Shown: positions 9,841 to 10,298, numbered from the stretch's first letter. The stretch: DNA of 17,831 nucleotides from Candidatus Venteria ishoeyi (GCF_030378065.1 NZ_JAUCGJ010000033.1:1-17831); one strand, 5' to 3'. A program made the numbers and translations. Notes: generated from the sequence alone by a model not told the origin.

Positions 9841-10024
9841 GATGTTCCCGCCTTGATAGAAGTCTATGGTATTTGTTTTTATACACCGCAGCAGGGAGAA
9901 TGAAAAGTTTAAATTCCTTGATGTTAAGCCGTAGCGGCTACATTAAGCAATATAGGCTATACTTTTTAGAAAACATGAAATCTCCAAGTATGAAACTTTT
10001 AATTTTGAACCGGGAGAATATGAG

Positions 10025-10207
10025 ATGTCAAAAGAGCAAGAAGTCACTAGCGAAGCAGCGCATGATGCGTGTCATAATCCCTGCGAGGAGTGTAGAAGCA
10101 AGGGTTCTCTTGAAAATGGGGAAATTTGCCCTGCATGTGCCGGTACGGGATGCAAAGATAAACAGTTTTGTGTACCTGCGGGGGGGCTTGGCTGTGATAT
10201 GGAATAG
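10025..10207 (+). CDS. Small Cys-rich protein (60 aa, 9 Cys), possible metal-binding or zinc-ribbon-like peptide
   Basis: GGGAGA RBS 7 nt upstream of the ATG. Sequence MSKEQEVTSEAAHDACHNPCEECRSKGSLENGEICPACAGTGCKDKQFCVPAGGLGCDME contains CxxxCxxC and CxxC...C motifs. It lies in the AT-rich 458-bp gap divergent from the MVP-like gene. No family recognised by eye. Confidence 0.4.
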   Translation: MSKEQEVTSEAAHDACHNPCEECRSKGSLENGEICPACAGTGCKDKQFCVPAGGLGCDME

Positions 10208-10298
10208 TCTTAAAAAATGAGACACATTCCTTATTTGAAATAATAAAGGCTTGTGTCTTGTGTTTTATCTTGCAAACTAAACGGGGGGTATAAAACCC

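Follow-up and report, generated by a model that had tools for sequence, protein, structure and literature searches.

The stretch of DNA analysed here, referred to as the window, comprises 17,831 nt from Candidatus Venteria ishoeyi, and all coordinates are counted from its first letter. Between a gene for a protein related to the major vault protein (the MVP-like gene) and the glycogen synthase gene glgA lies a gap of 458 bp, which carries a small open reading frame (ORF) for a cysteine-rich mini-protein. This ORF and its product are the subject of our analysis. A preliminary description, made from the sequence alone, had delimited the gap at 9841–10298, and the ORF boundaries on both sides, the MVP-like start at 9840 and the glgA end at 10299, agree with it. 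They also agree with its view that the gap is more AT-rich than its flanks: its GC content is 40.6%, as compared to 52.2% in the MVP-like gene, 49.8% in glgA and 47.8% in the whole window. As had been described as well, the small ORF is divergent to the MVP-like gene, with a 184-bp spacer between them; with glgA it is convergent. The features of the locus are:

4600–6426, + strand: glmS.
6467–7093, + strand: histidine phosphatase gene.
7336–9840, − strand: MVP-like gene, 834 aa, with a major-vault-protein shoulder domain (Pfam MVP_shoulder, E = 1.4e-29).
9841–10024, between the MVP-like start and the small gene: AT-rich divergent intergenic region, 184 bp, 35.9% GC.
10012–10017, + strand: Shine-Dalgarno (SD) sequence GGGAGA, 7 nt before the ATG, read from the sequence.
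10025–10207, + strand: coding sequence, stop included, of the 60-aa mini-protein with eight cysteines (Cys8), MSKEQEVTSEAAHDACHNPCEECRSKGSLENGEICPACAGTGCKDKQFCVPAGGLGCDME, identified by conservation and purifying selection.
10079–10159, + strand: candidate zinc-finger hairpin from hhalign, codons 19–45, PC20xxC23xxxG27 ... C35PxC38xG40xG42, then C43 and D45.
10211–10267, in the convergent spacer between the small gene and glgA: hairpin from RNA folding, probably a bidirectional intrinsic terminator.
10299–11771, − strand: glycogen synthase gene glgA (GT5; Pfam Glyco_transf_5, E = 9.8e-74).

The non-coding part of the gap downstream of the small ORF (10208–10298) has a GC content of 33.0%, close to the 35.9% of the upstream part, and the ORF itself, unlike these AT-rich flanks, has one of 49.2%. 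Within the profiled positions 8000–12500 the flanks of the small gene are the most AT-rich stretches.

The small ORF runs from an ATG at 10025 to a TAG at 10207 and encodes 60 aa. It had been presented as a well-formed small gene with a GGGAGA ribosome-binding site; the translation is identical and the site is where it should be. The product contains eight cysteines (C16, C20, C23, C35, C38, C43, C49 and C57) together with the histidines H13 and H17. The nine cysteines reported earlier were a miscount, and the motif list given with that number itself sums to eight.

Its length is no evidence that this ORF is a gene, because two further ORFs overlap it in other frames, one of 115 aa with a TTG start (9873–10220) and an antisense one of 65 aa (10028–10225). 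Both were considered as genes and rejected; they have no family matches, and the frame of the 115-aa ORF differs from the conserved one. The small ORF is recognized as a real gene by its conservation across phyla, its low ratio of non-synonymous to synonymous divergence (dN/dS) and its conserved SD sequence. A search of 5.8 billion proteins returned 19 homologues of 56–76 aa with 58–98% identity. The preliminary description had proposed to check the Cys positions in orthologues, and all eight are invariant in an alignment of 29 sequences. So are P19, G27, L29, N31, G40 and G54, and E33, G42, D45, G53 and L55 are nearly invariant; the conserved stretches outside the cysteines read NPC, G27, L29, N31, E33, GTGC, D45 and PAGGLGC. 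A histidine 2–4 residues before C16 is present in all but one sequence, the exception probably being mis-called at its N-terminus. H17 is not an obligatory ligand, since Y, Q or S replaces it in some homologues.

The same picture is obtained at the nucleotide level. Among ten loci with 42 aligned codons, 40 third positions vary, compared with 16 first and 15 second ones. Most synonymous sites are saturated, dN ranges from 0.04 to 0.30 and dN/dS, where estimable, from 0.05 to 0.23, with a median pN/pS of 0.19. This synonymous excess is accompanied by conservation of start, SD sequence and frame, as is characteristic of a protein-coding gene under selection. The small ORF is a genuine gene under purifying selection. 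In nearly all homologues, including those from other phyla, a GGAGGA-type SD sequence stands 7–8 nt before the ATG, and its strength suggests that the mini-protein may be expressed at a high level. A near-identical translation-initiation region, (G)GGAGGATATTAA-ATG, is found in loci from different phyla (L005, L012, L015, L096, L098 and L099 in our numbering).

Within the species, positions 4025–16206 of the window could be compared with contig FMSV02000498.1 of Ca. Venteria ishoeyi (L008), to which they are 99.1% identical with one gap. Absence or frameshift of the ORF in a close relative that retains the MVP gene had been named beforehand as evidence against it; in L008 it is intact, with M59I as the sole protein change. 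The two genomes differ by two substitutions in the small ORF and none in the 275 nt of flanking spacers, counts that are uninformative on selection because sequences with 99.1% identity are too close.

The hairpin downstream of the gene (10211–10267) folds with −25.9 kcal/mol on the + strand (z = −3.3, with 0 of 200 shuffled sequences as stable) and with −21.8 kcal/mol on the − strand (z = −3.2). It is flanked by an A-tract upstream and a T-rich tract downstream and is probably a bidirectional intrinsic terminator common to the small gene and the convergent glgA. A simple terminator scan made no call at this position, because the loop and inner stem exceed the scan pattern. On the other side of the gene, the 184-bp region 9841–10024 should hold both divergent promoters, none of which could be placed with confidence; the consensus scan returned a single sigma-70-like site on the minus strand (10031–10002). 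Within this spacer GGGAGAAT is repeated (9894–9901 and 10012–10019), AGAATGAAAAGTTTAAATT (9897–9915) matches AGTATGAAACTTTTAATTT (9987–10005), and TTAAGC-N-GGCTA occurs twice, 19 nt apart (9924–9940 and 9943–9959), with the palindrome AGCCGTAGCGGCT (9927–9939) inside the first copy. These repeats and the palindrome may be operator or promoter elements of the divergent pair, or they may be due to chance, and a regulatory region common to the small gene and the MVP-like gene is possible in Ca. Venteria ishoeyi. A search of positions 9700–10450 against Rfam detected no riboswitch or small RNA and returned a spurious long non-coding RNA match only (E = 0.19).

The family to which the mini-protein belongs is rare, with about 30 sequences in total. 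When 1.84 billion cluster representatives were searched with a HMMER profile, 26 proteins were found at E <= 1e-3, which comprise eight intact members, five truncated or frameshifted copies and, for the rest, multi-repeat CxxCxGxG proteins. A pattern scan of one genome per species, covering 185,579 species, yielded five loci, four of them in Nitrospirota (Nitrospiria, Nitrospiraceae and Thermodesulfovibrionia) and one in the gammaproteobacterium Milos-ODIII6. The family signature is C-x3-C-x2-C-x(10,11)-C-x2-C-x-G-x-[GA]-C-x5-C-x(6,7)-C. Wherever a source names the protein it is labelled 'hypothetical', and the family is covered by neither Pfam nor NCBIfam, none of whose models reaches its threshold. 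PADLOC gave no defence-system match for either the small protein or the MVP-like protein, and in two papers on Ca. Venteria ishoeyi there is no mention of vaults, zinc or cysteine-rich proteins.

Gammaproteobacterial and Nitrospirota members resemble the Venteria protein to about the same degree (54–69%). The GC content at third codon positions (GC3) of the small gene is 0.39, as compared to 0.50–0.56 in its neighbours, a deficit that with 60 codons amounts to only about 2 standard deviations. Because of the equal cross-phylum similarity and the low GC3, horizontal transfer among Nitrospirota and some Gammaproteobacteria is a plausible rather than a demonstrated origin of the patchy distribution. 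The low GC3 and the AT-rich flanks would also fit a horizontally acquired insertion.

What kind of protein is conserved here? CXXCXGXG motifs bind zinc in DnaJ and in anti-TRAP, and for the latter zinc is required for both oligomerisation and function (PMC2896485; bioRxiv 10.1101/2024.10.02.616296). Residues 15–46 of the mini-protein align by hhalign with two-motif CxxCxGxG units, taken from proteins that match Pfam DnaJ_CXXCXGXG, with probabilities of 95.3% and 92.8%, and in these alignments the four zinc ligands coincide with C20/C23 and C35/C38. In the search of the whole library the family profile matched, outside the family, proteins with repeated CxxCxGxG (E = 6e-6 to 8e-4), and four of the seven tested pass the Pfam gathering score for PF00684 DnaJ_CXXCXGXG. 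Weak matches to the NCBIfam anti-TRAP model RtpA were obtained for 19 of 20 members (best E = 0.0013) and to the NCBIfam DnaJ models for 13 of 20. A profile search of the PDB led to C4 zinc ribbons (eL37/L37e, RpoE'' and Spt4) and to the DnaJ cysteine-rich domain 1exk. A zinc ribbon or related metal-binding fold, already put forward in the preliminary description, is thus the best reading in the light of the hhalign probabilities of 93–95% and the weak profile matches. The companion idea of a disulfide-rich secreted peptide is not supported, since there is no signal peptide and the N-terminus is acidic and hydrophilic; for the same reason the protein should be cytoplasmic with reduced thiols, which would favour metal binding over disulfides.

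The explanation that we prefer, and that we regard as reasonably probable when taken as a whole, is a stand-alone gene for a small cytoplasmic zinc-finger-type metalloprotein of a rare, previously unannotated family, whose adjacency to the MVP-like gene is accidental. The gene would be independent and probably monocistronic, with a strong ribosome-binding site of its own and a terminator in the form of a hairpin. The core of the product, about residues 18–46, would form a zinc-finger hairpin of the type seen in the DnaJ cysteine-rich domain and anti-TRAP, with the knuckles C20xxC23 and C35PxC38xGxG holding one Zn(II) via four thiolates. C16 directly precedes the first knuckle, and C43, C49 and C57 follow the second; these four might then constitute a second, outer Cys4 site that clasps both chain ends. 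In the DnaJ cysteine-rich domain the Zn1 and Zn2 sites are nested, and by analogy such an outer clasp would be the most economical reading of the remaining cysteines. The N-terminal 12 residues, which are acidic and variable, are probably disordered. As the non-Cys residues are highly conserved, one would expect a defined fold that presents a specific surface for binding, and not a bulk metal sponge. The protein might accordingly be a protein-binding or regulatory module, similar to anti-TRAP, or else a small holdase or redox-sensitive zinc switch, comparable to stand-alone DnaJ-type zinc-finger proteins. Metal identity, second site, oligomeric state and cellular role are inferred. The neighbourhood of the MVP-like gene would be a lineage-specific accident of gene order, possibly after horizontal acquisition, with no functional pairing. 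We entertain tentatively, as a bolder version that is rather less than probable, an undescribed 'double-clasp' Cys8 family, whose zinc hairpin would be locked by a second Cys4 site made of one N-terminal and three C-terminal cysteines. It would have a patchy distribution, probably due to horizontal transfer, and would act as an anti-TRAP-like protein antagonist or as a zinc/redox stress switch.

Several observations weigh against this explanation. No curated family model reaches threshold, PF00684 does not match any of 20 members even at E <= 10, and the similarity to anti-TRAP and DnaJ is one of motifs, due in part to the Cys/Gly composition. Of the two knuckles, C35-P-A-C38-A-G-T-G alone has the canonical form CxxCxGxG; the other, C20-E-E-C23-R-S-K-G, is degenerate (CxxCxxxG). 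AlphaFold2 (AF2) models were unusable, with pLDDT values of 45.8 (20 aligned sequences) and 53.1 (24), and Foldseek returned a single meaningless match when the better model was compared with the PDB. The C16-x3-C20-x2-C23 spacing also suits an Fe-S (iron-sulfur) site, and the assignment of ligands to the second site is pure inference. On the genomic side, the consensus promoter scan gave nothing on the + strand that could serve the small gene, and neither a binding partner nor a phenotype emerged from the analysis.

The surroundings of the gene in other genomes bear on its possible roles. There are ten independent contexts besides Venteria, in which the neighbours are:

L001: patatin, HAD hydrolase and transhydrogenase.
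L005: a TPMT-like methyltransferase (TPMT/TehB-type) and, further on, pirin.
L011: a SLAC1/TehA-type channel and a PilZ-GGDEF-EAL protein.
L012 and L013: rplU, a GlcD-like oxidase and Usp.
L014: a protein with MopE Cu-binding motifs, TetR and a GT5 enzyme.
L015: CsgG, ParE and DUF899.
L096: YceI and an Old-Yellow-Enzyme reductase.
L098: TauE and a CMD/AhpD-like protein (CMD).
L099 and L100: ArsD.

The neighbours differ in every independent context, and no synteny is conserved. An all-versus-all comparison revealed one family common to independent contexts, the GT5 glycosyl-transferases. The GT5 gene of L014 (8535–10262, − strand), in a Nitrospiraceae metagenome-assembled genome, lies 2.4 kb from the small gene and has 24% identity to the glgA of the window. 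A link to glycogen on the basis of this shared family was rejected; about 100 neighbour genes were compared, so by estimate one such coincidence is expected.

The alternative that survives best is a metallothionein-like or stress thiol protein, which would buffer or pass on soft metals and metalloids (Zn, Cu, Cd, As, Te/Se) or sense oxidants in a stress response and would not work via a specific protein partner. Cysteine makes up 13% of this 60-aa, presumably cytoplasmic protein, and genes with a metal, metalloid or redox connection are found beside it in L005, L011, L012, L014, L015, L096, L098 and L100. They are the methyltransferase and pirin of L005, the SLAC1/TehA-type channel of L011, Usp of L012, the MopE-motif protein of L014, DUF899 of L015, YceI and the Old-Yellow-Enzyme reductase of L096, the CMD/AhpD-like protein of L098 and ArsD of L100. 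However, none of these neighbours recurs between contexts, where the one family shared overall is at about chance level, and no metal-sensing regulator is adjacent, so that they provide a lead and not evidence. Moreover, conservation outside the cysteines far exceeds that of typical metallothioneins, and the core matches the structural zinc-finger type. We consider a stress thiol protein unlikely.

An Fe-S mini-protein is a quite unlikely alternative. Its cluster would be bound by some or all of the eight cysteines, for instance by the C16-x3-C20-x2-C23 triad and a distal cysteine, and its role in organisms of anaerobic or sulfidic habit would be to transfer electrons or to sense the redox state. 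Both the Cx3Cx2C spacing and the eight invariant cysteines would allow this, and the carriers are in keeping with it, as they include Nitrospirota (among them Thermodesulfovibrionia), the sulfur oxidizer Ca. Venteria ishoeyi and Milos-ODIII6. Yet C20 and C23 align with the DnaJ-type zinc knuckle at 93–95% probability, the ferredoxin motif CxxCxxCxxxCP is not matched, and at E <= 10 there is no Fer4-type Pfam match.

A further possibility, raised in the preliminary description, is a precursor of a peptide that is made on ribosomes and modified after translation (RiPP). Cysimiditides are actinobacterial RiPPs in which a Zn-tetracysteine hairpin, with two CXXCXGXG motifs resembling those of anti-TRAP and DnaJ, is encoded next to a methyltransferase of the PIMT type, whose target is an Asp-Gly in the loop (bioRxiv 10.1101/2024.10.02.616296). 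The small protein has the same type of motif and an invariant Asn31 in its hairpin loop, which could likewise be presented to a modifying enzyme, and in L005 a methyltransferase lies 0.7 kb upstream. This enzyme is of the TPMT/TehB type, however, and a gene on the opposite strand stands between it and the small gene. In none of the 11 contexts is a PIMT-type methyltransferase, radical-SAM enzyme, cyclase, protease or exporter adjacent, and as no maturase accompanies the small gene this reading is unlikely. The loop also lacks Asp-Gly, cysimiditides are confined to Actinomycetota, and the conserved part of the small protein is its whole 45-residue body and not a leader. A cysimiditide-like precursor is very improbable.

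Could the small protein instead be a partner or cargo of the bacterial MVP-like protein, or an accessory co-regulated with it? The two genes diverge across the 184-bp region in both Ca. Venteria ishoeyi assemblies, and between the strains this spacer has no substitutions; about 1.8 would be expected at roughly 1% divergence, a difference that is not significant. The preliminary description had suggested a vault partner or cargo and proposed synteny as the check. Pursued in both directions, it places the pair side by side in Venteria only. An MVP-like gene is present within 5–6 kb of the small gene in 0 of the 10 non-Venteria contexts, and a six-frame search of 80 MVP-like loci with the family's hidden Markov model gave no small-protein homologue (0/80), not even in the closest relative with 74% identity; the sequence upstream of the MVP start reaches 400 bp or more in 70 of these loci and 1 kb or more in 57. 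Since the pairing is missing from both sets, the adjacency is specific to Venteria. Nor do other genes of the window show synteny with MVP across the 80 loci, and when the surroundings of other MVP-like genes were searched for small Cys-rich ORFs without homology to this one, the outcome was out-of-frame noise only. The families also differ more than 200-fold in size, with 6418 bacterial MVP-like homologues at E <= 1e-20 against about 30 small proteins. A link between the small gene and vaults is not supported; a vault-associated role is largely refuted by synteny and retains a very slight probability, and work on bacterial MVP homologues should not count the small gene as part of the system.

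The MVP-like family is of interest in itself. Its best 120 matches are 59–74% identical over the full 830 aa and come from several phyla; those named by their source include Desulfobacterales, Anaerolineae, Polyangiaceae, Ozemobacteraceae, Eremiobacterota and others. The MVP-like protein of the window is 100% identical to one in a newer Ca. Venteria ishoeyi assembly. Conservation of this degree is striking and unusual, and is worth a study of its own.

The idea that the small ORF is no gene at all but a chance ORF within an AT-rich spacer, to which its shortness and the overlapping ORFs of similar or greater length in other frames might lead, is refuted by the comparative data, as cross-phylum conservation with saturated synonymous sites and low dN and the conserved SD sequence leave it practically no probability.

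Further features of the window lie outside the immediate locus. Upstream of glmS there is a likely HicB/HicA toxin-antitoxin pair (3786–4373, + strand), consisting of a 98-aa ORF without Pfam match followed by a 93-aa HicA_toxin protein. Beyond glgA follow a CheW-like gene, a 157-aa ORF and a large CheA-type kinase on the − strand. The kinase (Hpt, H-kinase_dim, HATPase_c, CheW and receiver domains) is a single ORF of 1597 aa in the window (13007–17800, − strand), and in the older assembly L008 (8983–12183) its annotation consists of two genes that overlap, with 324 aa and 1825 aa. Together with the single gap in the pairwise alignment, this split suggests that one of the two Venteria genomes contains a frameshift or an assembly error.

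How does the zinc-finger-type mini-protein that we propose compare to systems already known? With bacterial metallothioneins (SmtA/BmtA) it would have in common that it is small, Cys-rich and cytoplasmic and probably binds more than one metal ion. Its Cys pattern differs, however, and neither Pfam nor NCBIfam yields a match to the SmtA type (PF02069) at E <= 10. In contrast to metallothioneins, the non-Cys residues are strongly conserved, and no SmtB/ArsR-type regulator is adjacent. C4 zinc ribbons such as those of eL37 and of RNA polymerase subunit E''/Spt4 likewise have two CxxC knuckles about 11 residues apart, and they provide the best PDB profile matches, which cover C20...C38. They differ in that the E-values are only 0.02–0.3, that there is no similarity outside the knuckles, and that functions and taxa are unrelated.

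Cysimiditides are small peptides as well, and their Zn-tetracysteine hairpin, of the CXXCXGXG type like the one proposed here, is related by HHpred to DnaJ and anti-TRAP. Their motifs are 14–22 residues apart, whereas the C23–C35 loop of the small family has 11, rarely 10, residues with the consensus G-Y-L-D-N-x-E-I and, unlike cysimiditides, no conserved D-G. The small family is not actinobacterial and has four extra cysteines, and no PCMT/PIMT-type gene occurs in any of its contexts, the TPMT/TehB-type enzyme of L005 being the sole methyltransferase nearby.

The DnaJ cysteine-rich domain (PF00684) and stand-alone proteins of the BSD2/ZnJ2 type contain eight cysteines, as does the small protein, for which a nested two-site topology is plausible. 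However, the DnaJ domain is built from four CXXCXGXG repeats that bind two Zn, while here there are two knuckles and the other four cysteines are single residues. The domain of the small protein is also shorter, with about 42 residues as compared to about 65 in DnaJ, and the J domain and client-binding domains of DnaJ are absent.

Anti-TRAP (RtpA; PF15777/NF058604) from Bacillus is, like the small protein, a stand-alone mini-protein (53 aa vs 60 aa). Anti-TRAP has two CXXCXGXG motifs; the small family has CxxCxxxG-x7-CPxCxGxG, with one canonical and one degenerate knuckle at a similar spacing, which would form a putative zinc hairpin. The protein of the window stays far below the NF058604 cut-off, with 9.5 bits (E = 1) as compared to 65 bits; for Pfam Anti-TRAP, where the PF15777 gathering score is 32 bits, 4 of 20 members match with a best E of 0.8, and the PDB profile search yielded no anti-TRAP chain at E <= 10. 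One dodecamer form of anti-TRAP buries a C-terminal helical region, and the AF2 model, of low pLDDT, predicts no C-terminal helix here. Anti-TRAP binds TRAP, and its gene is part of a tRNA-Trp-sensing operon of Bacilli; none of the 11 loci of the small family has a trp or TRAP context, and its carriers are Nitrospirota and Gammaproteobacteria. Small proteins are generally under-annotated, and the small gene is a case in point. Its product is a compact and tractable target for structural and metal-binding work, and with it the few stand-alone mini-proteins that have a DnaJ-type zinc finger, anti-TRAP and the cysimiditides, would be joined by a family with four additional invariant cysteines.

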